Origin: Escherichia phage vB_EcoM_E9
Sequence record: PP886229
Strand: one strand, 5' to 3'
Length of the DNA: 64,000 nt
Shown: piece after piece, positions 1,051-33,465 of the stretch
Position numbering within the stretch: the first letter of the stretch is position 1
How the letters are laid out: each line of letters starts with the position of its first letter
The notes under the pieces: generated by a model
Told to the model about the DNA's origin: nothing
What the model saw: the letters and a program-made list of their open reading frames with translations, nothing else
The model's database searches: none
Made by a program: the position numbers and the translations under genes

Positions 1051-1074
1051 AAGGATGTTAAGAAGGGTAGATAT

Positions 1075-1083
1075 TTATCCACA
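1075..1083 (+). promoter_or_regulatory. Single DnaA-box-like 9-mer TTATCCACA next to an AT-rich stretch (1110-1160)
   Basis: Exact consensus string; a single 9-mer could occur by chance. Confidence 0.2.
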
Positions 1084-1193
1084 TATGATGGTGACCCAGA
1101 GGTTGGGACAACCGATGAAATTTTATAAAAATTATAAATTTCGTAAAATTTACTCAATAAAAAGCCCCCAATTAAGGAGGCTCTTAAGATATT

Positions 1194-2638: not shown

Positions 2639-2692
2639 ATTCGCTACCTTATAAGTTCCTACAAAGGGGCTATCAAGTAACCCCTCAAGTTA

Positions 2693-2917
2693 TTACTCAG
2701 ACTTTTCAGTCTTCTTATCGGATTTCTTACTAGTCTTCTTCTCAGCTTTCTGCTCAGGTTCCTTCTCAGAAGTTGCCTTGATAACCATATCAAGAAGCTC
2801 TGATAAGTCACTCTTCAGCAGAGTAACAGGCTGCTCATTGTAGAAGTTTTTGTCAAGATAAACTTTGAACTCTTCAATAGAAGGAAATCCAAAAATTGGT
2901 ACAGGTGTCTTAATCAT
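2693..2917 (-). CDS. hypothetical small protein with Lys/Glu-rich C-terminus
   Basis: 74 aa ORF. Confidence 0.4.
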   Translation of the reverse strand: MIKTPVPIFGFPSIEEFKVYLDKNFYNEQPVTLLKSDLSELLDMVIKATSEKEPEQKAEKKTSKKSDKKTEKSE

Positions 2918-2993
2918 TACTTAGTTTCTCCATAGGCATCTTTTAAGATTGCCTTGTTAATCATTTCAGCGATTGCAAAACGAACACATACAG

Positions 2994-3497
2994 CTATAAT
3001 TGTAGGTTGCATTCTTTACTTACCTCTTCAAGTTTAACCTCAGAGTCCTTAAGTCGTTTCTTATGAACTCTGAATCTCATTAGTGCGATGATGATACCAA
3101 CTAAAGGAACAGCATACAAGTACCAAACATCATACCCCTTTGCAGTAATCTGTGTAATGGTCAAGTCTTGAGCTATGGAACTGATTGCTGATACTGCCAG
3201 TAATGTTGCTAAGAAAAATGCCAGTACCATTACCGTACTTAAACAACCTCTGGCATGGTGTTCATGCTTAATGCACTTATTCTTTTCGTCAACAACCCTG
3301 TTATAGTCGTTTGTAAAGTCTCTGTAGAAAGCTTTCAAGTATTCTTTATTGTAGCCTTCAAAGCAACCTGTACCGTACCAATAATCACCACCAAAATGTG
3401 CTATGATACCAGTGTCACCATTCGGTTTAGTTACTCTCAAAGAGGTGTGATGACGAGTGTCTTGATAATCTATTTTGTATCTTTCTTCGTAAATCAT
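2994..3497 (-). CDS. putative membrane protein
   Basis: 167 aa; two hydrophobic helices near the C-terminus (LSTVMVLAFFLATLLAV, YAVPLVGIIIALM). Confidence 0.5.
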   Translation of the reverse strand: MIYEERYKIDYQDTRHHTSLRVTKPNGDTGIIAHFGGDYWYGTGCFEGYNKEYLKAFYRDFTNDYNRVVDEKNKCIKHEHHARGCLSTVMVLAFFLATLLAVSAISSIAQDLTITQITAKGYDVWYLYAVPLVGIIIALMRFRVHKKRLKDSEVKLEEVSKECNLQL

Positions 3498-3712
3498 TTT
3501 CTAATCCCTCTCAATCGTTTGTTCCACTCAAGGTCAACAAGTCTTTGTAGTACTTTACCTCTAGGTGTTACACCTTTTAAATCTGCATCATAGCAATGGT
3601 AAAAGTCACCTTCAGCGTGTTTACCATAGCATTTTCTGATGTTCTGACTCCTACGATACTGCTCTAATAGGGACAGTTTGTAGTAATCTTCAACTGTAGT
3701 TAGTTTTTTCAT
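3494..3712 (-). CDS. hypothetical protein
   Basis: 72 aa ORF, stop/start overlap with neighbour. Confidence 0.4.
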   Translation of the reverse strand: MKKLTTVEDYYKLSLLEQYRRSQNIRKCYGKHAEGDFYHCYDADLKGVTPRGKVLQRLVDLEWNKRLRGIRK

Positions 3713-3795
3713 TCTTTCACCACGTATCTTCTCAAGAAACTAAAAAGGGAACTACCTCTCGATAGCTCCCATCATAGTTAATGTTGTATATTCGG

Positions 3796-4377
3796 TCAAG
3801 AGTATTTTTTAGGCAGTAATGCACTGCGCTTGTTGCTCTCTTCACTCAATAGTGCGATAAACTCATCACCTTTCCCTTTCCACGGGCTGAATGTAGGTAT
3901 GTGTTCTCTGATAGCCTCAATCACTGTCTTTAGTGCGTTATTCTTTAACCACCAATCAGACACTGCCGAAGCTACAATGTAATAAGCACCATCATCTGTG
4001 AAGATTGGCTCAGAGATACATGGTGAAATCATAGTTGTAATGATAGAGCCATTATTCATGTAGTATGTTCTTTTTTCAACCTTGTCAAGAAGCTTGTGAA
4101 GGTCTGCAAAGAGACTTACCACCTCTTTATGGTCAATATCTTTTTCAAGATTTGCTCTGTACTTTAATAGTGCAGCATCAACCTCTTTATCATTGAATTT
4201 GAAGTACTGGACTTCTTCATTCACACATACACTGATATTGTTAGTGTTTATCGTCAATTTGCACAGTTTGACTGGAGAGTTGATGTTGGTCTGAAAAAGT
4301 GCTACACAGCCTTCTACATTTCCGAAATGTTTTACTAATGTAACTTCTGGTTGGATGTGTTCATGCTCTTCTGACAT
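3796..4377 (-). CDS. hypothetical protein
   Basis: 193 aa ORF. Confidence 0.5.
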   Translation of the reverse strand: MSEEHEHIQPEVTLVKHFGNVEGCVALFQTNINSPVKLCKLTINTNNISVCVNEEVQYFKFNDKEVDAALLKYRANLEKDIDHKEVVSLFADLHKLLDKVEKRTYYMNNGSIITTMISPCISEPIFTDDGAYYIVASAVSDWWLKNNALKTVIEAIREHIPTFSPWKGKGDEFIALLSEESNKRSALLPKKYS

Positions 4378-4721
4378 TATAGTTTCCTCATTAAATACTT
4401 TTTAAGTTGTGTGTTAGGTTTCTCAAAAACTTCTATAGAAGATATCTTGACAGACTCACCACGCATACCTGTATGTTTAAATATATAATACTCTAACATC
4501 CCTATGTACTTTGCTGGTAAGTCATACTTAACGTACACCGTTACAGAATCCTCAAATTCAACAACCTTTGTACCATCTTTGTAGTTAAACTCTTTAGGGT
4601 GGTTGTAATTGTCGATGTCGTACATTAAAAAGAGTCTTTTCCGTTGCATGTCGAGCTTGTTGGTTAAAGACTCTTTGATATCTGAGAAGTTTTTGTACAC
4701 TGTGACATGGAGATTACTCAT
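4377..4721 (-). CDS. hypothetical protein
   Basis: 114 aa ORF. Confidence 0.5.
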   Translation of the reverse strand: MSNLHVTVYKNFSDIKESLTNKLDMQRKRLFLMYDIDNYNHPKEFNYKDGTKVVEFEDSVTVYVKYDLPAKYIGMLEYYIFKHTGMRGESVKISSIEVFEKPNTQLKKYLMRKL

Positions 4722-5007
4722 CGTTAAACTCTCTGACGAAGAAATAGTTGACTTTATTATTACCTACCATAAGGTCAAAGCAGGTATTCTCAAAAGGTTT
4801 GTTGTAGGCATCGTATGAAGTGTACGTATCAGCTACTTGTTTAGTATTGAGCTTTTTACTTGATGGATTTAAGAGGCCACCATACAGTTTCTTGATAGCC
4901 TCTTCTACAACAGACCAGATGATTTCGTCAGTAATTTCTTCGTACAGGTCAAGTTCACGCTCTAGTGAGAAGTCACAAATAGGGAAAATAACCTGTACTT
5001 TACTCAT
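4714..5007 (-). CDS. hypothetical protein
   Basis: 97 aa ORF. Confidence 0.45.
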   Translation of the reverse strand: MSKVQVIFPICDFSLERELDLYEEITDEIIWSVVEEAIKKLYGGLLNPSSKKLNTKQVADTYTSYDAYNKPFENTCFDLMVGNNKVNYFFVREFNDE

Positions 5008-5408
5008 TAACGAATAACCTGTGTGACTTGAATTGCTTCAGTTACGGACAAATCACCTACTTTCTCTTCTTTGATAAAAGTGAAGGTGAGTTCAACAGGT
5101 TCTTCCTCTTCTTCTTCTTGCTCAACTGGAATACCGTTAAGCTCATCAAAGATTGATTGGGTAGTCCAGTCTTCTCCACCATCTGGATAGTGGATGGCAT
5201 AAAGAGGAAACTCTAAATTATACCAAGCAAAAACAGGACAACCGTCTGCATCATCTCGGCATCTGTGGAGGTACGTATTTGTACCTTCAAAATGCAAATG
5301 AAGATTGCCATTCTTCTCAAATAGAAGAGCATCTCGCAGGTCTAGTTCCTTATTTTCGCTGTAACGACTGACATCAACTTTAACGTGGATATGACTGTTA
5401 TTATTCAT
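5007..5408 (-). CDS. hypothetical protein with poly-Glu stretch
   Basis: 133 aa ORF, EQEEEEEEP run. Confidence 0.5.
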   Translation of the reverse strand: MNNNSHIHVKVDVSRYSENKELDLRDALLFEKNGNLHLHFEGTNTYLHRCRDDADGCPVFAWYNLEFPLYAIHYPDGGEDWTTQSIFDELNGIPVEQEEEEEEPVELTFTFIKEEKVGDLSVTEAIQVTQVIR

Positions 5409-5799
5409 AAAAACCTCTCTCTGCTTGTTCGATTTTTGCTCTTAAAGTTTCGCAATGCTGTAAATGGTAGTTAGCTTCTTGTTCATGTGTTGCTAACTGC
5501 CTTTCAAGAACAGTTTTATAGTAACCTGCAAGTTGCTCTTTTGTCAATGGGTGCTCTGAAATAATATCAAGTCCACTTTCACCAAGAGGATTGAATTGTC
5601 CATGCTCATTGACATTGTAAGTCTCAAACTTGAACATACCATTGTTCACAGACTCAATAGGTGACAGTTCAACAAGCTCTACAGTAAACCGTGTATACAC
5701 CTTGTCGCCTCTTGAAACTACATTGTTTCCAATGATGCGTACAAGTGAACCGTTACGAGTGTACTTAAAAGTCCCAAAGTCACTAGCCCAAAGTTTCAT
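5401..5799 (-). CDS. hypothetical protein
   Basis: 132 aa ORF. Confidence 0.5.
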   Translation of the reverse strand: MKLWASDFGTFKYTRNGSLVRIIGNNVVSRGDKVYTRFTVELVELSPIESVNNGMFKFETYNVNEHGQFNPLGESGLDIISEHPLTKEQLAGYYKTVLERQLATHEQEANYHLQHCETLRAKIEQAERGFYE

Positions 5800-5824
5800 A
5801 GTTTTCTCCTTAGAAAATAAAAAA

Positions 5825-5840
5825 GGCTCCCGAAGGAGCC
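5825..5840 (-). terminator. Rho-independent terminator hairpin (GGCTCC-CGAA-GGAGCC) with U-run on the minus strand
   Basis: Perfect 6-bp GC-rich stem; A-run 5813-5824 on plus strand. Confidence 0.6.
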
Positions 5841-5850
5841 TATGAAGATA

Positions 5851-6315
5851 TTACTTTGGATATACACTGTCAAGATAAATGTCAGCTTCCATTCTACGTC
5901 TGTTTTTCAAGCCGTTTGAAGTGACCTTCTCACCTTTGACTGTAATCTTGTTCCACCACTGCATAGCTTCTGCACAACCTACCTTATTACCAGCATTGTG
6001 GCGCTTGATAAATGTAGAATCCTGCATAGCTGTGATACCGATGTTGTATGTTTCACTTACAAGTGCATCGAACTCATTCTGAGAAGTAGGAACCTTGATA
6101 GCTTTGTTCACTGCTGCAACAAACTTTTCAACATCTGCGAGAAGATACTGTTCAGCTTGTTCAGCAGTAATTTTCATACCCATCTTAACAGGTTTTCCGT
6201 CAATACGGATTGTGCCATACCCAATTGTTGGGATTCCGGCAGAGTCTTTGTAAGCCTCTAACTTCAGACCTTCAAAGAACTTAATAGCTTCTAAACCTTT
6301 TCTTGAGAGTTGCAT
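5851..6315 (-). CDS. phage lysozyme (GH24, T4-lysozyme-like endolysin)
   Basis: 154 aa; N-terminal E-x8-D-x5-T catalytic-triad spacing in FEGLKLEAYKDSAGIPTIGYGT. Confidence 0.8.
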   Translation of the reverse strand: MQLSRKGLEAIKFFEGLKLEAYKDSAGIPTIGYGTIRIDGKPVKMGMKITAEQAEQYLLADVEKFVAAVNKAIKVPTSQNEFDALVSETYNIGITAMQDSTFIKRHNAGNKVGCAEAMQWWNKITVKGEKVTSNGLKNRRRMEADIYLDSVYPK

Positions 6316-7448
6316 TATGCCTCCCCTGTTGGGTTAACTGTAACTGTTGCCGCATTAGATGTTACAGAGCCACCTGCACCAGTTACTACACAAGTGTAAG
6401 AACCTGCATCAGCAGCAGTTGCACCTTCTTTGGTGTAAGTTGCAGCAGTTGCGTCTGGGATGACTTCCTCACCTTTCTTCCACTGGTAACCTGTTGCACC
6501 AGTTGCCACAACATTCAGCGTTAAGGTCTCACCTTCAGTGATTTCTTGATTTGCTGGCTGTTGAGTGATTACAGGAAGAGCATTCACAGTAACTGTCGCT
6601 GCATTAGATGTGACTGAACCACCTGCACCAGTTACAACACAAGTGTAAGAACCTGCATCTGCTGGAAGCGCACCAGTCTTGCTATAGGTAGCATTTGTAG
6701 CTGAAGGGATGTTAGAGCCATCTTTCTTCCACTGGTAACCTGTTGCACCTATTGCAGTCACTTCCAAGTTGATGTTTCCACCCTCATTAATGGTCTGACT
6801 AGAAGGTTGCTTGGTAATCACTGGTAGTGCATTAACAGTAACTGTTGCCGCATCTGAAGTAACACTTGTTCCAGCCTCTCCAGACACAACACAAGTGTAT
6901 GAACCAGCATCAGAAGGTGCTACGGATTGTTTTGTGTAAGTTGCAGAGGTAGCACTGGAGATGTCCTCACCACCCTTCTTCCACTGATATCCAGTGGCGT
7001 TAGTTGCAATAACACTTAGGGTAAGTGTTCCACCCTCATTGACCGTTTGGTTTGTTGGTTGTTGAGTAATTGCTGGTGGCTTAATAGCATCCTTCAGCTT
7101 AGCATTCAACATTGAGAAAGGTTTAACTCTTGCCAGCCATTCACAGTAAATTGTGTCAACATCTTTACCGTTGATGATTGCATACTGTAAATCCATGAAG
7201 AAATCAGCAGTCCTCATCTGTGCACCAACACTGTAAAGGAGTTCATCACTAAAAGGGACTTTGTAGTCTGGTTTGTAGTCAAACTTCTCAACCTCTGCGA
7301 TATCAGCTTCAGGCCAATATGAACTATAGGTAAGTGGTAAAATAGCCTCTTGATATGTTCTAAAATCATATCTCTTACCAGCCTTTACATTTGCAATGAA
7401 GCCCTTTACAAATTCTTTGAAGTCTGGATAAGTCTTTGCTTTAATCAT
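6315..7448 (-). CDS. Ig-like domain protein (three tandem Ig-like repeats) with N-terminal domain paralogous to the next gene
   Basis: 377 aa; three ~80 aa repeats each ending ATGYQWKKG...DAGSYTCVV...ATVTV; DNA shows three ~250 bp tandem repeats. Confidence 0.7.
   Translation of the reverse strand: MIKAKTYPDFKEFVKGFIANVKAGKRYDFRTYQEAILPLTYSSYWPEADIAEVEKFDYKPDYKVPFSDELLYSVGAQMRTADFFMDLQYAIINGKDVDTIYCEWLARVKPFSMLNAKLKDAIKPPAITQQPTNQTVNEGGTLTLSVIATNATGYQWKKGGEDISSATSATYTKQSVAPSDAGSYTCVVSGEAGTSVTSDAATVTVNALPVITKQPSSQTINEGGNINLEVTAIGATGYQWKKDGSNIPSATNATYSKTGALPADAGSYTCVVTGAGGSVTSNAATVTVNALPVITQQPANQEITEGETLTLNVVATGATGYQWKKGEEVIPDATAATYTKEGATAADAGSYTCVVTGAGGSVTSNAATVTVNPTGEA
6330..7060. repeat. 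Three tandem ~250 bp coding repeats encoding the Ig-like domains
   Basis: Near-identical stretches such as CCACTGGTAACCTGTTGCACC recur at ~6480, ~6725 and ~6975. Confidence 0.7.
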
Positions 7449-9073: not shown

Positions 9074-9445
9074 ATGAAAAACAGAACAAACAAAGGCCAG
9101 TTTAAAAAAGGCCAGTCTGGAAACCCATCTGGAAGACCAAAAGGCTCTCGTAACAAAAGCTCACTTGTAAAAGCTCAACTGACCATTGATAATTCTGCTG
9201 AGTTTGCTGCAAAGTTGTTTGAAGCAATTGTTACAAGGGACGCTGCTAAGCTTGCAGAGTTCGGTTTAACGACTGACGATGTAAACCTGAAGTCGATGAT
9301 GGAAGCTGGTAAAACTATCATGACTCACTCAGCAGGTGAGATGAAAGCCATTGCAGCAGACACTAAGAAGACTCCTGATAACGGTGGTCAGTCTCAGACA
9401 GATAACAAACCAACGTTCTCTGCTGTAGCGACTCTCAAAAAATAA
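9074..9445 (+). CDS. hypothetical protein with N-terminal Gly/Lys-rich motif (GQFKKGQSGNPSGRPKG)
   Basis: 123 aa ORF. Confidence 0.5.
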   Translation: MKNRTNKGQFKKGQSGNPSGRPKGSRNKSSLVKAQLTIDNSAEFAAKLFEAIVTRDAAKLAEFGLTTDDVNLKSMMEAGKTIMTHSAGEMKAIAADTKKTPDNGGQSQTDNKPTFSAVATLKK

Positions 9446-9458
9446 TTTTAAAAGGTGT

Positions 9459-9493
9459 TGACAGACTCTACAAAGTTGCTCTAAAGTCTGTCA
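9459..9493 (+). promoter_or_regulatory. Putative promoter: TTGACA -35 hexamer embedded in an 8-bp palindrome (GACAGACT ... AGTCTGTC)
   Basis: TTGACA at 9459-9464; inverted repeat arms at 9461-9468 and 9486-9493. Confidence 0.35.
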
Positions 9494-9526
9494 CATCAAA
9501 CAACAAATGAGAGAAGAGAGTAAAAT

Positions 9527-10942
9527 ATGAGCGAATTATTTAAACATGCGCACCTTCATGTAGGTCGAACTGAAAATGGTGCTGTAAACCATACTTCATC
9601 AATGTCTGCTCTTGTGGACTTTTACAAAGCTGCTGGTTCCAGCCGTAGTAATGTAGAAATCTTACCAGACTTGTTCTACAAAGCTTTGCGTGAGGATGTT
9701 GATGTTGCAGTTCGTATTTTACTGCATATGCGAGATGTACGAGAAGGTATGGGTGAGCGTAAAGCTTTCCGAACTGTTTTACTTCAAGCGATTGAAGATA
9801 AAGTTTTAGAGCCTACACAGGTTCTTCGCATTATGGATAAGATTGCAGAACTTGGTCGTTTTGATGACTTCAAAATCTTCGTAGGTACTCGTTTTGAGAC
9901 AGATGCCTTCAAACATTTAGAAGCAGCATTACTAGACCCTGCAACATCAGGTTTAGCGGCTAAGTGGTTACCACGAGTAAAACCACGCCACAAACAGTTT
10001 GTAAAACGTTTCTGTAAGTTTGCAAACTTAAGTGAGAAGGAGTATCGCACACTGTTATCTGCACTGTCTGATACGGTTGAGCAAAAAATCTCTGCTAATG
10101 AGTTTGGTAAGATTGACTACAGCAAGATTCCTTCACTCGCTGCTGCACGTTACCAAAAGCTCTTTAACCGTAAAGATGGGGAACGTTACAAAGCTTACAT
10201 TGAGTCCTTATCAAAAGGTGAGGCTAAGATTAACGCTGGTGCTGTTTACCCATACGATGTGATTAAATCTATCAAGTATGGTAATGCAGATGTTGCTAAT
10301 GAGCAGTGGAAAGCACTACCAAACTGGATGGCAGAAGGTGAGAACATCTTGTGTATGACTGATGTTTCAAGCTCAATGTCTTGGGTGAATATTGGTTCAA
10401 TCACTGCCCTTGATATTGGTGTATCACTTGCTTTGTATGTAGCAGAACGCAACACTGGTTGCTTTAAGAATGAGTTAATGGTTTACTCAACAAACCCTCA
10501 CTTCATCGAACTGAGTGGTGATTTACGAAACCGTCATCGTCAGGTAATGCGTCATGTTGAATATGGTTCAACTAACTTACAAGCAGCTTTTGACCGTATT
10601 CTTGAGGTAGGTAAGCGAAACAACTTGACTCAGAAAGATATGCCAAGTAAGCTTATTATCTTCTCCGATATGGAGTTCAATCAGGTTGATGGAGCTAACG
10701 GTCGTACAAACTTTGAAGCAATTCAGAGTAAGTACAAAAAAGCTGGATACGAAATGCCACAACTAGTATTCTGGTACTTAGCAAACCGTAATGGTACTTG
10801 CGAAGTATCTGTTAAGGATAATGGTGTAGCGATGGTATCAGGGTTCTCTCCAGCCACTTTAAAAGCTCTGCTTGGTGGTGAGAAGTTTGACCCAATCAGC
10901 GTAATGCTCAAAGCAGTAATGATTGACCGTTACATCTGGTAA
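9527..10942 (+). CDS. von Willebrand factor A (vWA) domain protein with large N-terminal domain (TROVE/DUF2828-like suspected)
   Basis: 471 aa; MIDAS-like DxSxS motif (CMTDVSSSMSW) in the C-terminal half. Confidence 0.55.
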   Translation: MSELFKHAHLHVGRTENGAVNHTSSMSALVDFYKAAGSSRSNVEILPDLFYKALREDVDVAVRILLHMRDVREGMGERKAFRTVLLQAIEDKVLEPTQVLRIMDKIAELGRFDDFKIFVGTRFETDAFKHLEAALLDPATSGLAAKWLPRVKPRHKQFVKRFCKFANLSEKEYRTLLSALSDTVEQKISANEFGKIDYSKIPSLAAARYQKLFNRKDGERYKAYIESLSKGEAKINAGAVYPYDVIKSIKYGNADVANEQWKALPNWMAEGENILCMTDVSSSMSWVNIGSITALDIGVSLALYVAERNTGCFKNELMVYSTNPHFIELSGDLRNRHRQVMRHVEYGSTNLQAAFDRILEVGKRNNLTQKDMPSKLIIFSDMEFNQVDGANGRTNFEAIQSKYKKAGYEMPQLVFWYLANRNGTCEVSVKDNGVAMVSGFSPATLKALLGGEKFDPISVMLKAVMIDRYIW

Positions 10943-10961: not shown

Positions 10962-10990
10962 TTGACAATGTGTTTGATACCCTTTAATAT
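10962..10990 (+). promoter_or_regulatory. Sigma70-like promoter TTGACA-N17-TAATAT upstream of the tRNA array
   Basis: Exact -35 hexamer, 17-nt spacer, -10 TAATAT; -35 sits inside inverted repeat GGGTAT/ATACCC. Confidence 0.5.
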
Positions 10991-11108
10991 GTTCTACATA
11001 GAAACGAAATGAGAGCTTTTCTAAGATACTGAAAAATATTTTAAAAAAGTTCTTGACAACCACTAAAAAATAATGTTAAAGTGGTTACATAGAGTTTGAA
11101 AAGTTTAT

Positions 11109-11185
11109 CTCTGTTTAGCTCAGCTTGGTAGAGCGTTCCGTTTGGGGCGGTAAGGCCGGAGGTTCAAGTCCTCCAACAGAGACCA
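11109..11185 (+). tRNA. tRNA-Pro (anticodon TGG)
   Basis: 7-bp acceptor CTCTGTT/AACAGAG, D-arm GCTC..GAGC, T-arm GGAGG-TTCAAGT-CCTCC, 3' CCA. Confidence 0.7.
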
Positions 11186-11192
11186 AATTAAT

Positions 11193-11270
11193 GTTCCAGT
11201 AGACAAAATGGTAAAGTCACCACTCTTTCAAAGTGGATATTTGAGGGTTCAAATCCCTTCTGGAACGCCA
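11193..11270 (+). tRNA. tRNA-Glu (anticodon TTC)
   Basis: Acceptor GTTCCAG/CTGGAAC, anticodon stem CCACT/AGTGG, T-loop TTCAAAT, CCA. Confidence 0.7.
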
Positions 11271-11277
11271 GTTTTGA

Positions 11278-11350
11278 CAGAAGACCAATTGCAGCAAACT
11301 TAATCTTATTCATCTGACACGAAATCGGACAAAGAAGAGATTTGGTCTGG
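11278..11350 (+). ncRNA. Stem-bounded tRNA-sized element, copy a (CAGAAG-AGACCAA ... TTGGTCT-GG)
   Basis: 7-bp terminal stem 11282-11288/11342-11348; conserved CAGAAG leader and CAGCAA box; no T-loop consensus. Confidence 0.4.
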
Positions 11351-11361
11351 TCATTAAGAAT

Positions 11362-11438
11362 TGCGGGTATAGAGAAAGGGCGTCTCACATGTCTCATTAG
11401 CATGGTATCGGCAGGTTCGACTCCTGCACCCGCCTCCA
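11362..11438 (+). tRNA. tRNA-Met-like (anticodon CAT), mismatched 1:72 pair
   Basis: Anticodon stem CATGT/GCATG, T-arm GCAGG-TTCGACT-CCTGC, CCA. Confidence 0.55.
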
Positions 11439-11444
11439 AATTTA

Positions 11445-11508
11445 CAGAAGACCGTTTACAGCAATATTTATTAAATTTTTAGCGGAAAAATTGAAAGATA
11501 CGGTCTGG
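11445..11508 (+). ncRNA. Stem-bounded element, copy b (CAGAAG-AGACCGT ... ACGGTCT-GG)
   Basis: 7-bp terminal stem with compensatory changes relative to copies a and c. Confidence 0.4.
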
Positions 11509-11521
11509 TAATACTAAACAT

Positions 11522-11598
11522 GGTTAGGAAGCACATAAGGTATGTGCGGTCGCCTGTTAAGCGAATGGCACAGGGTTCGAATCCCTGACTAACCGCCA
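11522..11598 (+). tRNA. tRNA-Asn (anticodon GTT)
   Basis: D-arm GCAC..GTGC, T-arm CAGGG-TTCGAAT-CCCTG, CCA. Confidence 0.65.
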
Positions 11599-11607
11599 AA
11601 TTTAAAT

Positions 11608-11695
11608 GTGTCGTTATCCCGTAGATGGTAGCGGTGGGGACTGTAAATCCCTTGTCATTGAGACTCGGTAGGTTCGACTCCTACACGGCACACCA
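11608..11695 (+). tRNA. tRNA-Tyr (anticodon GTA), long variable arm
   Basis: Acceptor GTGTCGT/ACGGCAC, anticodon stem GGGGA/TCCCT, T-arm GTAGG-TTCGACT-CCTAC, 88 nt. Confidence 0.7.
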
Positions 11696-11701
11696 AATAA
11701 A

Positions 11702-11779
11702 GGTTATGTAGTTTAATCTGGTTAAAATACTCCCCTGTCACGGGAGATGATGTGAGTTCAAGTCTCATCGTAACCGCCA
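11702..11779 (+). tRNA. tRNA-Asp (anticodon GTC)
   Basis: Acceptor GGTTATG/CGTAACC, anticodon stem CTCCC/GGGAG, CCA. Confidence 0.7.
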
Positions 11780-11866
11780 AATTATAATAAGTATTTCAAG
11801 ATGATGTTTTGAGAGGGCTATTTAGCCCCTCCCTTAAAGAGTTCTTACGAGTATTCTTTAAAGGAG

Positions 11867-11940
11867 CAGAAGACCAAATTCAGCAAGTTACTTAAAATTT
11901 CAAGCCAATTTAATTTTGAAAAATTTAAAACTTGGTCTGG
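11867..11940 (+). ncRNA. Stem-bounded element, copy c (CAGAAG-AGACCAA ... TTGGTCT-GG)
   Basis: 7-bp terminal stem 11871-11877/11932-11938. Confidence 0.4.
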
Positions 11941-11953
11941 CTCAAAAATTTTA

Positions 11954-12085
11954 CAGAAGACCGTTTACAGCAAAACTTAAACAATCTATTTCTCCGGTAA
12001 AGAAAAGGCGAAGGTTCGATTCCTTCACTCGGCAGATGTCGAGTTGGTGTAATGGTAGCACTTAAGATGATAAACAACGGTCTGG
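11954..12085 (+). ncRNA. Stem-bounded element, copy d, enclosing tRNA halves in permuted order
   Basis: 8-bp terminal stem AGACCGTT/AACGGTCT (11958-11965/12076-12083); contains a T-arm and a D-arm in reversed order. Confidence 0.4.
11989..12061 (+). tRNA. Candidate circularly permuted tRNA (anticodon GGT, Thr-like): 3' half 11989-12034 precedes 5' half 12038-12061
   Basis: 3' half has anticodon arm TTTCT-CCGGTAA-AGAAA, T-arm GAAGG-TTCGATT-CCTTC, acceptor ACTCGGC; 5' half has acceptor GTCGAGT (7 bp with one G-U) and D-arm GTGT-AATGGTA-GCAC. Confidence 0.35.
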
Positions 12086-12086
12086 T

Positions 12087-12230
12087 AATTATCTTTGTAG
12101 ATAAGTTATTAAGCTTACCTGTGAGTATGCGACCACAAAGGGTGAAAGGGCAAATTCTAGATTTAAACCCAACAAGGCACATCGCTACAGACCTTAAGCA
12201 AGTCTGGGTAGCTTATCTACAAAGATAATT
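12087..12230. repeat. 19-bp perfect inverted repeat AATTATCTTTGTAGATAAG (12087-12105 / 12212-12230) flanking ~106 bp
   Basis: Arms are exact reverse complements. Confidence 0.6.
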
Positions 12231-12234
12231 TAAT

Positions 12235-12310
12235 GGAAGTGTAGCAGAATGGTGATGCGGCAGACTTTTAATCTGACAGGCGATGGGTTCGAATCCCTCC
12301 ACTTCTACCA
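12235..12310 (+). tRNA. tRNA-Lys (anticodon TTT)
   Basis: Acceptor GGAAGTG/CACTTCT, loop CTTTTAA, T-loop TTCGAAT, CCA. Confidence 0.6.
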
Positions 12311-12314
12311 ATAT

Positions 12315-12391
12315 GGTTCAGTCGCAGATAAGGTAATGCAGGGGTCTCATAAGCCCTATGAATGTGGGTTCGATTCCCATCTGAACCTCCA
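12315..12391 (+). tRNA. tRNA-Met or tRNA-Ile2 (anticodon CAT)
   Basis: Perfect acceptor GGTTCAG/CTGAACC, loop CTCATAA, CCA. Confidence 0.7.
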
Positions 12392-12392
12392 A

Positions 12393-12468
12393 GCTGGTAT
12401 AGTTAAGAAGGTTATAACACTCCCCTGATAAGGGAACATCGGTGGTTCGATTCCACCTACCAGTACCA
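12393..12468 (+). tRNA. tRNA-Ile (anticodon GAT)
   Basis: T-arm GGTGG-TTCGATT-CCACC, loop CTGATAA, CCA. Confidence 0.65.
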
Positions 12469-12483
12469 ATTTCAATAAAGTTG

Positions 12484-12512
12484 TTGACATTGAGATGTGA
12501 CTACTTTATAGT
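12484..12512 (+). promoter_or_regulatory. Sigma70-like promoter TTGACA-N17-TATAGT inside the tRNA array
   Basis: Exact -35 at 12484-12489 and -10 TATAGT at 12507-12512 with 17-nt spacer. Confidence 0.55.
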
Positions 12513-12805
12513 AACTGAAAATAATTCAGCATATGTATAATTCAAACACCAATACATGAGCGTTAGACGTAACACAATGTGGGGAAATTTGTTGTACATA
12601 TTCTGAATAGTTTTCGTTGCGTAGCGTCTATTTTGCAAATTTAAAATAAATGCAAACGACAATGTTTTTCTGGCAGTAGCTTGATAGGCTAAACACCAGT
12701 GAGGTCTTCCAATCCCTCATCAAAGAATTTGGCGTACTAGCCCACGGTATGATTAATAAGGTGGGCATCTTTAAGGGCTTTCTAAGAGAGTCTTTAAAGA
12801 TTAAT

Positions 12806-12882
12806 GCACCCTTAGTTCAATTGGATAGAGCAACGGTCTTCTAAATCGTTAGTTACAGGTTCGAATCCTGTAGGGTGTGCCA
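12806..12882 (+). tRNA. tRNA-Arg (anticodon TCT)
   Basis: D-arm AGTTCAATTGGATAGAGC, loop CTTCTAA, T-loop TTCGAAT, CCA. Confidence 0.7.
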
Positions 12883-13024
12883 AATAGTTAGCAGATTGCT
12901 TAGACGACCTTATCGGGTCTCCGTGTAAGGAGGTGGTCTGTATCTCATGTTTTCCAGAACATGTAAATAATCTGAGAAGGGGCTTTACAGTGTTGCGAAA
13001 ATACGGTAAGCTTCGAATTACAGT

Positions 13025-13107
13025 ATGGGACGATGTTAAGACTCTAAGGCATGAGCAACGGCCTCCAAAACCGTTTCAAAGGGGTTCAACTCCTCCGTCC
13101 CATGCCA
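13025..13107 (+). tRNA. Atypical tRNA-like sequence, anticodon unassigned
   Basis: Acceptor ATGGGAC/GTCCCAT plus T-loop-like GGGGTTCAACTCC and CCA, but no clean D-arm or 7-nt anticodon loop. Confidence 0.3.
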
Positions 13108-13120
13108 AAGTCTTATTAGG

Positions 13121-13208
13121 GGTAGGTAGCGGCTAATGGCAGCCAAACAGTCTTGAAAACTGTTGCCACTGTAGAGATACGGTGAGGGTTCGACTCCTTT
13201 ACTTACCG
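13121..13208 (+). tRNA. tRNA-Ser (anticodon TGA), long variable arm
   Basis: Anticodon stem ACAGT/ACTGT, loop CTTGAAA, long variable arm, T-loop TTCGACT; no encoded CCA. Confidence 0.6.
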
Positions 13209-13364
13209 CCTAATAAGATTTACACCGTCCATGCTTGCTCGCATTTTCGGTTTATCCCTCGTGTATTGTCGTACACTGATAAAGCACCTAGCAGGTGTCA
13301 CGGAGAAGAGATAATATCAAGCTCTCCAAAGGTTCTAGTCACCGGATTAAACAAGACTATGCAA

Positions 13365-13384
13365 AGACCTATTTAGGTCTTTTT
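13365..13384 (+). terminator. Rho-independent terminator AAGACCT-ATTT-AGGTCTT followed by TTTTT
   Basis: 7-bp stem plus T-run, inside the tRNA array. Confidence 0.6.
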
Positions 13385-13463
13385 AGAGGGCTTCTAAGGT
13401 TATTACAGCTTGTTGTGGAACCTTGTTGCTTAGGTTCTTAGAAGTTCTCTAAAAAGATTTAAT

Positions 13464-13541
13464 GGGAGATTGACGGTAATTGGTAAACCTACCATCCTTA
13501 GAAGTTGGTGTTTGAGGGTTCGAATCCCTTGTCTCCTACCA
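13464..13541 (+). tRNA. tRNA with apparent anticodon TAG (Leu-type) but short variable arm; identity uncertain
   Basis: Acceptor GGGAGAT/GTCTCCT, T-arm GAGGG-TTCGAAT-CCCTT, CCA; 78 nt. Confidence 0.5.
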
Positions 13542-13548
13542 AATTAAT

Positions 13549-13624
13549 GCAGGTGTAGCAAAATGGTTATGCGGCTGACTCTTAATCAGTAAGACGATGG
13601 GTTCAATTCCCTCCACCTGTACCA
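13549..13624 (+). tRNA. tRNA-Lys (anticodon CTT)
   Basis: Anticodon stem GCTGA/TCAGT, loop CTCTTAA, CCA. Confidence 0.65.
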
Positions 13625-13630
13625 AACAAT

Positions 13631-13706
13631 GGGGTCATAGTTTATATGGTTAAAATTCTAGTTTTGCAAACTTGGGAACTGAGTTCAATTCTCAGTGACT
13701 CCACCA
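13631..13706 (+). tRNA. tRNA-Ala (anticodon TGC)
   Basis: Acceptor GGGGTCA/TGACTCC with the G3:U70 wobble typical of tRNA-Ala; CCA. Confidence 0.75.
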
Positions 13707-13712
13707 ATTAGT

Positions 13713-13787
13713 GCATCCATAGTTTAAACGGGAAAATTACAGTCTTCCAAACTGAGGTTGAGGGTTCGATTCCCTCTGGATGCTCCA
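13713..13787 (+). tRNA. tRNA-Gly (anticodon TCC)
   Basis: Perfect acceptor GCATCCA/TGGATGC, loop CTTCCAA, CCA. Confidence 0.7.
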
Positions 13788-13794
13788 AATTAAT

Positions 13795-13870
13795 GCTCCT
13801 ATCGTATAATTGGCTATTACGGTTGCCTTGTAAGCAACTTATCAGGGTTCGAATCCTTGTGGGAGCACCA
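13795..13870 (+). tRNA. tRNA-Thr (anticodon TGT)
   Basis: Anticodon stem GTTGC/GCAAC, loop CTTGTAA, T-loop TTCGAAT, CCA. Confidence 0.7.
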
Positions 13871-13874
13871 ATTT

Positions 13875-13961
13875 AGAGGTCAAGTGAAAGACCGCTTTGA
13901 GTCAACTGAAGACCGTAACAAATTCCACGGAGTTGAGTTAGCGGCACAACTTCAGACCTCT
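13875..13961 (+). ncRNA. Stem-bounded ~87 nt non-tRNA element (AGAGGTC ... GACCTCT) containing GAAGACC motifs
   Basis: 7-bp terminal inverted repeat 13875-13881/13955-13961; no T-loop consensus. Confidence 0.3.
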
Positions 13962-13966
13962 TTAAT

Positions 13967-14041
13967 ACTCGCTTAGTTTATATGGTAAAACACCACCCTT
14001 ACAAGATGAAGAAAAAGGTTCAAGTCCTTTAGTGAGTACCA
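13967..14041 (+). tRNA. tRNA-Val (anticodon TAC), weak anticodon stem
   Basis: Acceptor ACTCGCT/AGTGAGT, D-arm GTTT..AAAC, T-arm AAAGG-TTCAAGT-CCTTT, CCA. Confidence 0.5.
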
Positions 14042-14042
14042 T

Positions 14043-14120
14043 GTTCCAGTATCCCAATTGGTAGAGGATGCAAGCTCAAACCTTGCACTAGTGACGGTTC
14101 GAATCCGTCTTGGAACACCA
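14043..14120 (+). tRNA. tRNA with anticodon CAA (Leu-type) but class I architecture; identity uncertain
   Basis: Perfect anticodon stem GCAAG/CTTGC, loop CTCAAAC, T-arm GACGG-TTCGAAT-CCGTC, CCA. Confidence 0.55.
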
Positions 14121-14125
14121 ATTTT

Positions 14126-14201
14126 GCAGGATTAGTTCAAATGGATAGAGCAACAGTCTACGAAGCTGTTAATAGGGGTTCGAATCCCTTATCCTGCACC
14201 A
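14126..14201 (+). tRNA. tRNA-Arg (anticodon ACG)
   Basis: Perfect acceptor GCAGGAT/ATCCTGC, loop CTACGAA, CCA. Confidence 0.7.
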
Positions 14202-14219
14202 ATTAAGTAAGAGGGATTT

Positions 14220-14462
14220 ATGCAAACATTAATAGTCGTTGAACATGAAAATTCCAATAGCATTGAGTTTGTAAGGGTTCCCACTATAGATACCCACATT
14301 TTCTTGAAAGTCGGCTGGGGATGCGACCCAATAAGAGTAGAAAAATTTATTGGTCATTGCTTTGGTGGAAGACAACTTAAAAGTGTCAATTTTGAGACAA
14401 TGCTACCAGAAAACTCAGAAACAAATAATAATGCTTACCTCCTTACGAGGATTAGACAATGA
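14220..14462 (+). CDS. hypothetical protein embedded in the tRNA array
   Basis: 80 aa ORF in a tRNA-free gap, stop overlaps the next ORF start. Confidence 0.4.
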   Translation: MQTLIVVEHENSNSIEFVRVPTIDTHIFLKVGWGCDPIRVEKFIGHCFGGRQLKSVNFETMLPENSETNNNAYLLTRIRQ

Positions 14463-15016
14463 GATACTTAAAATATGTTTCATGGATTTTCTTAGCTTTG
14501 TTAGAGCCATTTGCAGCAATCTTAGCAGTTATCTTAGCACCTTTTGTAGTTCCATTTTACAGTGAGAAGAAAGGACACTTACCTTTCGGATTTAGATGGA
14601 TGGAAACTTATGACAACCCGATTGATGGTGATGAAGGTCATGTCAAACGATGGGCTAAGATTAGAAAGATTGGTAAGCTTGGTGTCTATTTACAGAGAGT
14701 TGGATGGCTCTGGAGAAACAAAGCTTATAACTTCTCTTACCATGTGTTAGGAAGAGATGTAAAAGATGTTACTAAGTGGAAAGGTAATATCAACGTAAGC
14801 TCTGACCCTGAAGATAATCAGACAGGTTATCTCCTAATGTGGAACAGTAATGCTTGGGGATTATTCGCTTTTATCCCATCAATTAAAGTCTTTGGTAAAC
14901 AATTCTACTGGAGAATTTATGTTGGATGGAAACTTAAAAGTGTTGTCCCAGAAGAAAGAGCATTCTCAAGGGAAAGAGTTATGTTGGCATTCTTTATTCA
15001 TCCACTAAGAAAGTAA
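14459..15016 (+). CDS. putative membrane protein embedded in the tRNA array
   Basis: 185 aa; N-terminal hydrophobic helix (WIFLALLEPFAAILAVILAPFVVPF). Confidence 0.5.
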   Translation: MRYLKYVSWIFLALLEPFAAILAVILAPFVVPFYSEKKGHLPFGFRWMETYDNPIDGDEGHVKRWAKIRKIGKLGVYLQRVGWLWRNKAYNFSYHVLGRDVKDVTKWKGNINVSSDPEDNQTGYLLMWNSNAWGLFAFIPSIKVFGKQFYWRIYVGWKLKSVVPEERAFSRERVMLAFFIHPLRK

Positions 15017-15024
15017 AGATTTAA

Positions 15025-15100
15025 AGGGGATTAGTTTACAAGGTTAAAACCTCGGTCTTTGAAATCGAAGAAGTTGGTTCAATTCCAACATCCCCCGCCA
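15025..15100 (+). tRNA. tRNA-Gln (anticodon TTG)
   Basis: Anticodon stem TCGGT/ATCGA, loop CTTTGAA, T-arm GTTGG-TTCAATT-CCAAC, mismatched 1:72 pair. Confidence 0.6.
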
Positions 15101-15102
15101 AT

Positions 15103-15181
15103 GCTCCATTACTCCAATTGGCAGAGAGGCCAGACTTAAAATCTGTGTTATGTATCGGTTCGAATCCGATATGGAGTACCA
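15103..15181 (+). tRNA. tRNA with anticodon TAA (Leu-type) but no long variable arm; identity uncertain
   Basis: Acceptor GCTCCAT/ATGGAGT, loop CTTAAAA, T-arm ATCGG-TTCGAAT-CCGAT, CCA. Confidence 0.5.
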
Positions 15182-15186
15182 AATTT

Positions 15187-15262
15187 AGCGGTATAGCATA
15201 ACTGGCAATGCAGCAGTCTCTGAAGCTGTCTTATTAAGGTTCAAATCCTTATGCCGCTGCCA
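15187..15262 (+). tRNA. tRNA-Gln (anticodon CTG)
   Basis: Anticodon stem GCAGT/GCTGT, loop CTCTGAA, T-arm TAAGG-TTCAAAT-CCTTA, CCA. Confidence 0.6.
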
Positions 15263-15293
15263 CTTCTAAGGGTTCTTACGAGAGTCCTTAAAT

Positions 15294-15369
15294 GTGGCCT
15301 TATCATAAATGGTAATGACCCATGCTGTGAACATGGTCTATACGGGTTCAAATCCCGTAGGTCACCCCA
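15294..15369 (+). tRNA. tRNA-His (anticodon GTG)
   Basis: Perfect anticodon stem CCATG/CATGG, loop CTGTGAA, CCA. Confidence 0.65.
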
Positions 15370-15375
15370 ATTTAT

Positions 15376-15451
15376 AGTCCAAGTAGCTTATATGGTTAAA
15401 GCGCGTGTCTGAAAAACATGAGAAGAGGGTTCAAATCCCACTGGACTACCA
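15376..15451 (+). tRNA. tRNA-Phe (anticodon GAA)
   Basis: Loop CTGAAAA, T-loop TTCAAAT, acceptor 3' strand CTGGACT, CCA; overlaps the GTG start proposed by the ORF track. Confidence 0.55.
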
Positions 15452-15467
15452 ATTTCAAAGGTGCTTA

Positions 15468-16202
15468 ATGAAAGAGATGACAGAACAAGGTAAGGAGATT
15501 TTTAATCTCTTAAAAACCGGTAGAGGGTTTTCTAACCCCCTTATTACTGGTGCAGCAGTTCTCGGTGGAACCGTAGCTGCCTCTACATCACTTGTAAGCT
15601 CTATTAGCTCTGTAACAGACCCTACAATAAAGGATAAGCTTGTTGCTGCTGGGCTTACAACAGTTCTGCTTAATAGCTTTACAACGAGTCTGACAAGCAC
15701 TACATCAACTACTAAGACACTGACAGATTACGGTCAAAAGTCCATTGATGAGTTTTCATCACGTATGCAGGTAGCAAAAGGATATTCCAATGTTATGGGT
15801 GCAGCAGGAGAGCAAGTCGGTTGTACGCCATTTAGTGGTATTATGGGTGTTGCTACAGAATATGGTCAAAAAGCTATTGACACGATTAACAACACGTTAG
15901 ACAGTGTTAATGATGTATTAAGTGACTTACAAGATGCTATTGATAAAGGTCTTGATACTGTTTCTGATTTAGCTAACCAAGCTGTTAGCAAGATTAATGA
16001 AGGTATCTCGAAGATTACAGCTTATGCAGATGAAGTTGTGCAGATGATTGAAGAAGAAGCTGCCCTTATTGCAGAGTACCTTAAAACGAATATCAATGGG
16101 TTCTTAGCAGGTATCTTACCAGACTGGTTTGACGATGCTTGTAAAACTGGTGTGATTGACACTATTGCAACACAAGAAATGAAGAACGCATTACAGAAAT
16201 AA
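15468..16202 (+). CDS. hypothetical Ser/Thr-rich protein with N-terminal hydrophobic segment
   Basis: ORF track 15405..16202 starts at a GTG inside tRNA-Phe; in-frame ATG at 15468 (MKEMTEQ) clears the tRNA. Confidence 0.5.
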   Translation: MKEMTEQGKEIFNLLKTGRGFSNPLITGAAVLGGTVAASTSLVSSISSVTDPTIKDKLVAAGLTTVLLNSFTTSLTSTTSTTKTLTDYGQKSIDEFSSRMQVAKGYSNVMGAAGEQVGCTPFSGIMGVATEYGQKAIDTINNTLDSVNDVLSDLQDAIDKGLDTVSDLANQAVSKINEGISKITAYADEVVQMIEEEAALIAEYLKTNINGFLAGILPDWFDDACKTGVIDTIATQEMKNALQK

Positions 16203-16203
16203 T

Positions 16204-16296
16204 GGAAGATTAACCCTAAAAGGTAAGGGAGCAGTTTGCTAAACTGCCAGTAGCTGAGAAATCGGTGTACCAGTTCAAGTCTGGTATCTTCCTCCA
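16204..16296 (+). tRNA. tRNA-Ser (anticodon GCT), long variable arm
   Basis: Perfect anticodon stem GCAGT/ACTGC, loop TTGCTAA, T-arm ACCAG-TTCAAGT-CTGGT, CCA; 93 nt. Confidence 0.65.
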
Positions 16297-16300
16297 ATTT

Positions 16301-16376
16301 GAATCCGTGACAGAAATGGCTATGTGCCTGTCTGCAAAACAGGTTTATAAGGGTTCGAGTCCCTTCGGATTCTCCA
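16301..16376 (+). tRNA. tRNA-Cys (anticodon GCA)
   Basis: Perfect acceptor GAATCCG/CGGATTC, anticodon stem CCTGT/ACAGG, loop CTGCAAA, CCA. Confidence 0.7.

Positions 16377-28081: not shown

Positions 28082-33465
<5,384 letters not shown>

Follow-up and report, generated by a model that had tools for sequence, protein, structure and literature searches.

A Ro60-like protein gene upstream of a phage tRNA array and its candidate Y-like partner RNAs

The 64,000-nucleotide (nt) stretch of Escherichia phage vB_EcoM_E9 that was analysed here (PP886229; the window) raises the question of why a gene for a vWA-domain protein stands directly in front of a tRNA array. A preliminary description, made from the letters alone, had proposed a protein of the Ro60/Rsr type (TROVE plus vWA) with a speculative role in RNA quality control or tRNA handling. 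In this study, we found that the 471-amino-acid (aa) product is most likely a strongly diverged member of the Ro60/Rsr class, in which a ring domain is closed by a vWA domain with an intact metal-ion-dependent adhesion site (MIDAS). The proposal is correct in substance and, for this gene, it was already in the literature through the ortholog Bas63 gp130. The explanation that we favour, with a probability of roughly 60%, is a divergent Ro60/Y-RNA-type particle in which the ring-plus-vWA protein would bind neighbouring RNAs with a CAGCA motif, the long form of which would present a tRNA mimic. Our analysis shows a Ro60-like fold, an invariant MIDAS, an RNA structure that is conserved and covaries, and the linkage of the RNAs to the gene; the binding of these RNAs by the protein, what the particle would act on and how the Ppl defence system would be blocked are inferred. 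What is new is the cross-family evidence of tRNA proximity for a Ro60-like gene, together with covarying, gene-linked YrlA-like RNA candidates at set coordinates, which are apparently undescribed for DUF2828-type proteins in the searchable literature, and the suggestion that tRNA-mimicking RNAs of a related kind serve two "Ro-like" protein families without sequence relationship.

The protein and its published ortholog

The gene occupies positions 9527-10942 of the + strand and not 9074-10942, as had been given; positions 9074-9445 belong to another open reading frame (ORF) of 123 aa. The 471-aa product itself was confirmed, with more than 3200 homologs and 709 cultured phage records from many host genera. 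It matched DUF2828 (3e-29) and DUF7788 (1e-43, residues 275-455) and no other Pfam family, as well as PHROG 850, "RNA-binding protein", at 1e-183. The C-terminal vWA domain (approximately residues 272-471; 10340-10939, +), which had been recognised earlier by a MIDAS-like DVSSSMS motif, was borne out by the DUF7788 match and by an alignment of 60 homologs with 40-88% identity. The window protein has the motif C-M-T-D-V-S-S-S-M-S, and the complete MIDAS set, i.e., D279-x-S281-x-S283 (nt 10361-10375, +), T349 (10571-10573, +) and D381 (10667-10669, +), was invariant in the alignment. Moreover, VWA_2 matched 38 and vWA_Ro60 matched 12 of the 60 family members, the latter with a best E of 1.7e-4. 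The N-terminal domain (approximately residues 1-270; 9527-10336, +) is all-helical and resembles a TROVE/HEAT ring by its fold, and 11 Arg/Lys residues in the N-terminal half were invariant or nearly so.

Searches of the PDB by phmmer and with a profile reached Ro60 at E 0.3 only and over the MIDAS stretch only, where the profile aligned DVSgSM (DVSSSM in the window) with DVSASM of Ro60, a match that is not significant alone. Because the sequence and profile searches gave only non-significant matches, a fold comparison was needed. This produced a full-length match to Ro60 and not to the vWA domain alone, with 2i91 and 9nep among the matches; the overall fold is that of a helical-repeat ring domain followed by a vWA domain packed against it, as in Ro60/Rsr, which supports the architecture that had been proposed. 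The cavity of Ro60 binds misfolded small RNAs. A generic vWA/MIDAS adaptor with no nucleic-acid role, e.g., a co-chaperone for the assembly of a MoxR-type ATPase, does not agree with the full-length match. Additionally, BLAST-level clustering of the neighbours within 5 kb on either side at 76 loci revealed no AAA+ partner and no protein family common across lineages, and the gene sits among early/accessory rather than morphogenesis genes, so that we regard such an adaptor as extremely improbable.

The experimentally tested ortholog is gp130 (bas63_0130) of Escherichia phage JohannRWettstein (Bas63, MZ501086), which is identical to the window protein at 459 of the 471 positions (97% over all residues). 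The locus is fully syntenic and has the same neighbours, i.e., the 123-aa ORF upstream and tRNA-Pro, Glu, Met, Asn, Tyr and Asp downstream. The PhageMaP preprint of 2024 described gp130 as structurally similar to Ro60 and as encoded directly upstream of tRNA genes, "some of which are possibly Y RNAs" (PMC11482910). Its deletion made Bas63 sensitive to Ppl, while gp130 alone, plasmid-borne or in T7, restored plating on Ppl-carrying cells, and in T7 it improved plating even without any defence system (PMC11482910). The tRNAs of Bas63 were mostly non-essential and the known phenotype of gp130 was not tRNA-related (PMC11482910). Ppl escape is the only functional handle on this protein, and its Ro60-like nature is already in print. 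The Bas63 paper included no cross-phage analysis of tRNA proximity or of an RNA partner, and it reports no result for the genes 137 and 138 of Bas63, with which the RNA elements described below overlap. Its authors guessed that a part of the annotated tRNA genes might be Y RNAs, whereas our candidates are unannotated elements between the tRNAs (11277-12088). They make the published guess testable in a tractable E. coli phage by providing coordinates, a motif and deletions to be made.

Y-like RNA candidates and their link to the gene

Four related elements were found within the tRNA array on the + strand. They start with CAGAAGACC...CAGCAA and finish with ...GGUCUGG; three are short (approximately 70-80 nt) and one is long. 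The long YrlA-like candidate (11953-12088, 136 nt) sits in an unannotated gap from tRNA-Asp to tRNA-Lys, and its minimum free energy (MFE) fold consists of a closing stem (AGACCGU/ACGGUCU), the single-stranded UUUACAGCAAA and a four-arm module. The latter comprises, in this order, a V hairpin, a T arm (loop UUCGAUU), a closed acceptor-like hairpin of 7 base pairs (bp), U8-G9 and a D arm (loop AAUGGUA). As modelled, this fold amounts to a circularly permuted tRNA enclosed by a stem; the long candidate scored 144 and 117.5 bits with two covariance models. The first short candidate (11277-11353) has the closing stem and CAGCAA and no tRNA-like module (32.7 and 36.9 bits); its closing stem, AGACCAA/UUGGUCU, is compensatory relative to that of the second copy (11444-11511; 43.8 and 36 bits). 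A probable third copy (11865-11945; CAGAAGACCAAAUUCAGCAA ... UUGGUCUGG) was revealed by a repeat search and has an MFE fold with the closing stem (z -1.9); it was not reported by the covariance models. The candidates lie 338-1014 nt downstream of the gene on the same strand, with the long form starting 1014 nt after the stop codon. Two other placements of a Y RNA were rejected: an annotated tRNA, since none stands out and the candidates lie between the tRNA genes, and the 166 nt that separate the gene from the first tRNA, since two promoter-like repeats occupy them.

The first covariance model was built from an alignment of Ounavirinae sequences, in which the T and D arms are invariant across three genera, while three versions of the acceptor-like hairpin (ACUCGGC/GUCGAGU, ACACGUU/GGCGUGU and ACCCUUC/GAAGGGU) all retain the 7 bp. 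Paired cells made up 97.9% of this alignment compared to 41-54% in the slid controls, and the MFE folds of eight sequences agreed on the tRNA-like module. The model found full-length matches in distant phages, always on the strand of the homolog. Among 19 such matches, 95% of the cells were paired (37-44% when slid) and 201 were changed on both sides, compared to 24-44 in the slid and 63 ± 6.5 in the shuffled alignments, none of the 500 shuffles having reached 201. Covariation was present in all six helices: the 7-bp closing stem was 97.7% paired with both sides changed in six of the seven pairs, and the acceptor-like hairpin covaried at all seven. A second-generation model gave 94 matches in 85 homolog-centred loci, 72 of which were clean and fell in 47 loci; the median pairwise identity of the long forms was 60%. 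CAGCA was found at a fixed position (UU-W-CAGCA-A) in 66 of the 72 clean matches, the others having CCGCAA (four), CTGCAA (one) and CAGCC (one). An element lay within 350 nt of the gene in 28 of the 47 loci, always on the same strand, whereas 3.5 ± 1.8 were expected and 10 was the maximum of 3000 permutations; seven of these 28 loci had no tRNA at all. To judge from their sequence and position, the candidates are encoded as a Y RNA would be, i.e., near the gene and on its strand.

The 22 matches that were not clean overlap tRNAs called by ARAGORN, and they bear on the view that the elements are decayed tandem tRNA genes or junctions, caught by covariance models in which a T arm precedes a D arm, instead of functional RNAs. 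Chen et al. (2014) warned of exactly such an artefact, and the elements do sit in tRNA arrays. However, all of the junction matches remained at or below 48.4 bits, compared to 50-117 bits for the clean ones, and CAGCA was present in only two of them. Moreover, the stretch that follows the T arm and the one that precedes the D arm form a hairpin that covaries at 7/7 pairs, which unrelated adjacent tRNAs would not do. Nothing in tRNAs corresponds to the closing stem or to CAGCA, the short forms are devoid of a tRNA part and the elements also occur in tRNA-free loci; a decayed-tRNA origin is thus very improbable.

The candidates share several features with bacterial Y RNAs. YrlA has a circularly permuted tRNA-like architecture in a stem, and its gene is found on the strand of the Ro60 gene, at most 4 kb away (PMC4201824). 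Similarly to Rsr with YrlA/YrlB in Salmonella and M. smegmatis (PMC4201824; RF02553), the window combines a ring-plus-vWA/MIDAS protein with a putative partner RNA on the same strand within 4 kb. The likeness to YrlA extends to the 5'/3' stem, the large internal loop with a conserved motif, the V-T-AS-D arm order and the occurrence of a long form with shorter form(s); a 7-bp acceptor-like stem is shared with YrlA of M. smegmatis, and RtcB is found nearby in one phage lineage. Unlike Rsr, the DUF2828/DUF7788 protein is approximately 12-17% identical to Ro60, its ring domain spans approximately 270 instead of 360 aa, and Pfam TROVE does not match it. A GNCGAA/CGAA motif is carried by the Y RNAs known from bacteria and phages (PMC4201824; PMC12135203), near the 5' end and as GNCGAAN0-1G or CGAA in the YrlA type, and the GGCGAAG of the window element falls in the T stem and not at the presumed Ro60-contact position. 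The canonical phage YrlA locus of Khaleesi, approximately 190 nt upstream of its Ro gene, scored 36.1 bits with Rfam YrlA, which is below the gathering score, and our own model matched it through the tRNA-like module only. At Snenia, the element 122 nt downstream of a DUF2828-type gene was matched by Rfam YrlA over its full length (39.3 bits, E 2.5e-7) and by our model at 77.8 bits. Because of the module shared with Khaleesi and the full-length match at Snenia, the new RNAs can be placed as a divergent YrlA-type branch, which would share the tRNA-like module of YrlA and differ in the presumed protein-binding motif (CAGCA compared to GNCGAA/CGAA). They also differ from YrlA in having several copies, embedded in a phage tRNA array.

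The mycobacteriophages Snenia, Crossroads and Gabriela (Lclasvirinae) encode true homologs of the window protein (approximately 34% identity over the full length) that are annotated "Ro-like RNA binding protein". Canonical TROVE Ro60 was found in 357 records (Bixzunavirus, Streptomyces and other phages) that form a different phage set from the 709 with DUF2828/DUF7788; the matches were validated by the annotation of the records. In actinobacteriophage records, the label "Ro-like RNA binding protein" is given to both of these sequence-unrelated families. Our results suggest that the two "Ro-like" families use related tRNA-mimicking RNAs. The Ro60 of Thermus phage phiLo binds Yrl1/Yrl2 and the host PNPase in vitro (PMC12135203; PDB 9l5y, 9kop); it is a recognisable TROVE protein whose RNAs carry CGAA and no described tRNA-like module, whereas for the window protein the corresponding binding is predicted. 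Metazoan Ro60 has a ring domain without detectable sequence homology to the window protein, metazoan Y RNAs have no tRNA-like module, and the biology differs as well (nuclear RNA surveillance, autoantigen).

In T4 and T5, which are rich in tRNAs and do not encode the protein, the RNA model gave no match above 31 bits with the filters off, and the best ones were tRNA junctions. T4 rnaC and rnaD, as well as T5 RNA1, RNA2, RNA3, RNAI, RNAIII and RNAIV, were rejected as members of the family (≤31 bits). The tRNA clusters of these phages contain "stable RNAs with unknown functions", eight in T5 (2285-5950 and 12849-13567 of the T5 locus) and two in T4 (1409-1672 of its locus), some of which were called tRNA-like; phage tRNA arrays thus hold several unrelated, unexplained small RNAs.

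In the particle that we favour, the protein and the adjacent small RNAs (one of 136 nt and approximately three of 70-80 nt) would form a ribonucleoprotein, as do Rsr with YrlA/YrlB and phiLo Ro60 with Yrl1/Yrl2. The closing stem with the single-stranded CAGCA(A), which is common to all copies, would be the presumed protein-binding module, and the permuted tRNA-like module of the long form (V, T, closed acceptor and D arms) could engage tRNA-recognising enzymes or mimic tRNA. During infection, the particle may participate in counter-defence and RNA handling. It is feasible that a Ro60-type cavity, which in Ro60 accepts single-stranded 3' ends, caps the 3'-OH ends that are sensed by Ppl, with the Y-like RNA serving as a gate or tether. 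In the known systems, the Y RNA has two roles, as a tether of Ro60 to other enzymes and as a gate of its cavity, and some activities of Ro60 do not involve the Y RNA (PMC4201824), so that an RNA partner is compatible with a protection from Ppl that is RNA-independent.

Several observations weigh against such a particle. The Pfam TROVE model (PF05731) matched none of the 60 family members at E ≤ 1; in the comparison with TROVE and DUF2828 that had been suggested as a check, DUF2828 and the Ro60-like fold were found, while TROVE failed at the sequence level. Rfam YrlA (RF02553, gathering score 69 bits) did not match the window element even at E ≤ 10 in a 241-nt search. Unlike YrlA, the RNAs carry CAGCA(A) instead of GNCGAA. 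Their single-sequence folding z-scores are ordinary (-0.7 to -1.9), the diverse RNA alignments were fitted to the model, and the E-values of the model are rough. A clean RNA match was missing in 38 of the 85 homolog loci, including those of KVP40 and Campylobacter F358, for which 6 kb on either side were covered. A reciprocal test that started from an RNA-only DNA pattern, which was too loose and was applied to flanks that were too short, found a homolog in the flanks of 4 of 19 loci (>50 bits) and of none of the 61 controls. The positives were on the same strand at 0.3-4.6 kb and the remaining 15 loci lay in large tRNA arrays that fill the covered DNA, which shows an enrichment, and not exclusivity, of the RNA-gene pairing. 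Finally, Ppl is reportedly a DNA exonuclease that is not RNA-directed (PMC12904381), and since gp130 alone counters Ppl, the anti-Ppl phenotype needs no phage RNAs (PMC11482910).

These points favour, in part, a stand-alone inhibitor of Ppl that acts by protein contact, for example through the MIDAS face, or by capping DNA 3'-OH ends. It would have no dedicated RNA partner, and the RNAs, for example processing signals or stable RNAs that derive from tRNAs, would be co-located features of the array. The phage T7 lacks RNAs of this kind; it is protected by gp130 alone and plates better with it even in the absence of a defence system (PMC11482910). Ppl was described as a single-stranded DNA 3'-5' exonuclease that senses 3'-OH ends and is activated by 3'-OH overhangs together with the depletion of nucleoside triphosphates (review PMC12904381). 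Additionally, the gene has a promoter-like site of its own, the RNA-first search met it in just 4 of 19 loci, and the T4 and T5 arrays carry unrelated stable RNAs. On the other hand, in 28 of 47 loci, some of which are tRNA-free, short and long elements are at most 350 nt away from the gene, and the RNA was not found in T4 and T5, which are without the gene. The RNA from a locus with no homolog in the covered flanks matched only cultured Enterococcus and Vibrio phages of lineages that encode the protein, within 6.7 kb of the gene. Moreover, a Ro60 fold together with a YrlA-like RNA makes up a particle that is already known. We consider a stand-alone inhibitor unlikely, although worth serious attention; it is compatible with the particle because Ro60 proteins also have activities that are free of Y RNA (PMC4201824).

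A broader version of the particle, i.e., a widespread and hitherto unrecognised phage ribonucleoprotein of DUF2828-type Ro60-like proteins and CAGCA-bearing, tRNA-mimicking Y RNAs in which the RNA is active in counter-defence, is put forward tentatively and is rather unlikely. If it is true, the module occurs in at least 700 cultured phage genomes (of enterobacteria, Listeria, Bacillus, Enterococcus and mycobacteria) as well as in metagenomic relatives by the thousands. As a tRNA decoy or sensor, for example, the RNA could act on host nucleases that target tRNAs, or it could, as a gate or tether, direct the ring protein to those nucleic-acid 3' ends that are attacked or sensed by defences such as Ppl. 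Such a role would account for the association of the module with the tRNA arrays of phages.

Several annotations touch the candidate RNAs. A "tRNA-Met(CAT)" at 11362-11438 (+), called by ARAGORN and annotated in Bas63, Sf13 and Sf18, is flanked on both sides by short Y-like elements; it had no match with the Rfam tRNA model even at E ≤ 10, and its counterpart is unannotated in Moogle, ESh21 and SUSP2. Small "hypothetical protein" ORFs overlap the Y-like elements on the opposite strand in Bas63 (bas63_0137/0138, Bas63 locus 32749-33023; window 11925-12182, -) and in several other records, and they are probably mis-annotated RNA genes. Our results suggest that Y-like RNAs are present without annotation in many phage genomes, in some cases under a small ORF that was called in error. 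In Klebsiella phage FBKp34, a "tRNA-Asp" of 114 nt (FBKp34 locus 7003-7116), which is much longer than a normal one, overlaps a 48-bit match with the Y-like model (7031-7151) and could be either a tRNA that contains an insertion or a tRNA-like RNA that was misread.

Proximity to tRNA genes

The placement of the gene directly upstream of the tRNA array was confirmed, the first tRNA beginning 166 nt past its stop codon on the same strand. The earlier suggestion would have been contradicted by homologs that are consistently encoded away from tRNA clusters. This is not the case: a tRNA on the same strand was present within 3.5 kb of the gene in all ten cultured lineages that were inspected. The gene of Klebsiella FBKp34 is followed by a 480-nt gap and a 12-tRNA array, that of Enterococcus VRE9_2 lies inside a tRNA array, and arrays end upstream of the gene in Bacillus Chewbecca (approximately 20 genes, ending at approximately 600 nt) and Listeria AG20 (17 tRNAs, approximately 620 nt). 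In the other lineages apart from the window, the tRNA is found at 243 nt (Campylobacter F358), 1.2 kb (Mycobacterium Snenia), approximately 2 kb (Sinorhizobium phiM7), 2.3 kb (Staphylococcus S-CoN_Ph6) and 3.4 kb (KVP40).

The association was further tested in 75 metagenomic loci that encode proteins 39-47% identical to the window protein, with random placement within the locus as the null. A tRNA was present in 34 of these loci, and in 16 it was within 1 kb compared to the 7.6 expected (P ~5e-4); with one representative for each 60% cluster, the numbers were 7.1 and 3.1, respectively. Every tRNA was found on the strand of the gene. The enrichment is only about 2-fold and 41 loci had no tRNA in the covered flanks; as about half of the loci had none, the association, although real, holds for phages that possess tRNAs in the first place.

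Proximity of this kind could also be expected from a chaperone or quality-control factor for phage or host tRNAs that passes misfolded or damaged tRNAs to repair or decay enzymes, the Y-like elements being secondary. The same-strand tRNAs in the ten cultured lineages, the established affinity of the Ro60 cavity for misfolded small RNAs and the presence of 2i91 and 9nep among the fold matches are consistent with this role. In Listeria phage AG20, moreover, the gene lies between the tRNA array and the genes of RtcB (6e-60; 1.2 kb downstream) and of an RNA ligase (4.1 kb downstream). However, RNA-repair or decay genes of the RtcB or PNPase type were absent near the gene in the window and were not recurrent across lineages. 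Seven of the 41 metagenomic loci without a tRNA in the flanks keep a Y-like element beside the gene, the Y-like RNA is nearer to the gene than the tRNAs are, and the Bas63 data, in which most tRNAs are non-essential and the gp130 phenotype is not related to them (PMC11482910), do not point in this direction. A tRNA chaperone is therefore distinctly unlikely.

In the Ro60/Y-RNA-type particle, by comparison, tRNA-derived partner RNAs that lie in or beside the arrays, and that probably share transcription and processing with them, would bring the gene close to tRNAs. The tRNA proximity of the gene would then largely be a consequence of the tRNA ancestry of the partner RNAs and of shared expression. 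This suggests that ancestry and shared processing are part of the reason why such genes adjoin tRNA arrays.

Other features of the locus

The window belongs to a Felix O1-like myovirus (Felixounavirus), and the stretch is present in 252 phage records. The array (11109-16376, +), in which the Y-like RNAs are embedded, has 26 tRNA genes according to ARAGORN and 24 at the gathering score according to Rfam, all on the + strand, and not the 27 that had been counted. At the gathering score, Rfam revealed nothing but tRNAs in the window and in 10 related loci. The 27th tRNA of that count may be a sub-threshold tRNA-like stretch at approximately 13027-13109 (+; Rfam tRNA-Sec model, 23 bits), which has a T-arm and a CCA-like end at 13082-13109, is 71% similar to the neighbouring tRNA-Arg and may be degenerate.

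Consensus scanning placed a sigma-70-like promoter candidate for the Ro60-like gene (TTGACA-18-TAAAGT; 9458-9487, +) in the 81-nt spacer that separates it from the 123-aa ORF. Two tandem candidates (10962-10990 and 11053-11082, +), which form a direct repeat with an AAAAA..TTGACAA context, take up most of the spacer in front of the first tRNA. The promoter-like sites are consensus matches only, and the region is no richer in them than its shuffled versions. The repeats in the spacer and the promoter-like site of the gene suggest that the gene and the array are adjacent yet separate transcription units. The region's best sigma-70-like match (TTGACA-17-TATAGT, 11/12) lies in the stretch at 12484-12805 (+); after it come approximately 300 nt with an unusually stable structure (z -3.3 and -4.5), including a long perfect hairpin just before tRNA-Arg. 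The stretch has weak Rfam matches to tmRNA_permuted and tmRNA and may encode another small RNA.

The 123-aa ORF (9074-9445, +; DUF5681, phrog_4114) has a basic GNPSGRPKG N-terminus, and its position immediately in front of the Ro60-like gene is conserved only among Felix O1-like phages; the clustering of neighbours at the 76 loci likewise showed that DUF5681 is specific to these phages. On the - strand, 6315-7448 encodes a 377-aa protein with three tandem near-identical repeats of approximately 85 aa (NQTVNEGGTLTL...GYQWKK...AGSYTCVV) that are Ig-like in look, and the Bas63 counterpart is annotated "immunoglobulin-like domain protein". Pfam DUF2828 is also mentioned for plant proteins in papers on potato, wheat, poplar and Casuarina, which indicates that the family reaches eukaryotes. 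A NAD+ salvage pair, i.e., ribose-phosphate pyrophosphokinase and nicotinamide phosphoribosyltransferase, is encoded in Bas63 (locus 2747-5455) and in FBKp34 (locus 579-3658), where it lies directly upstream of the Ro60-like gene.

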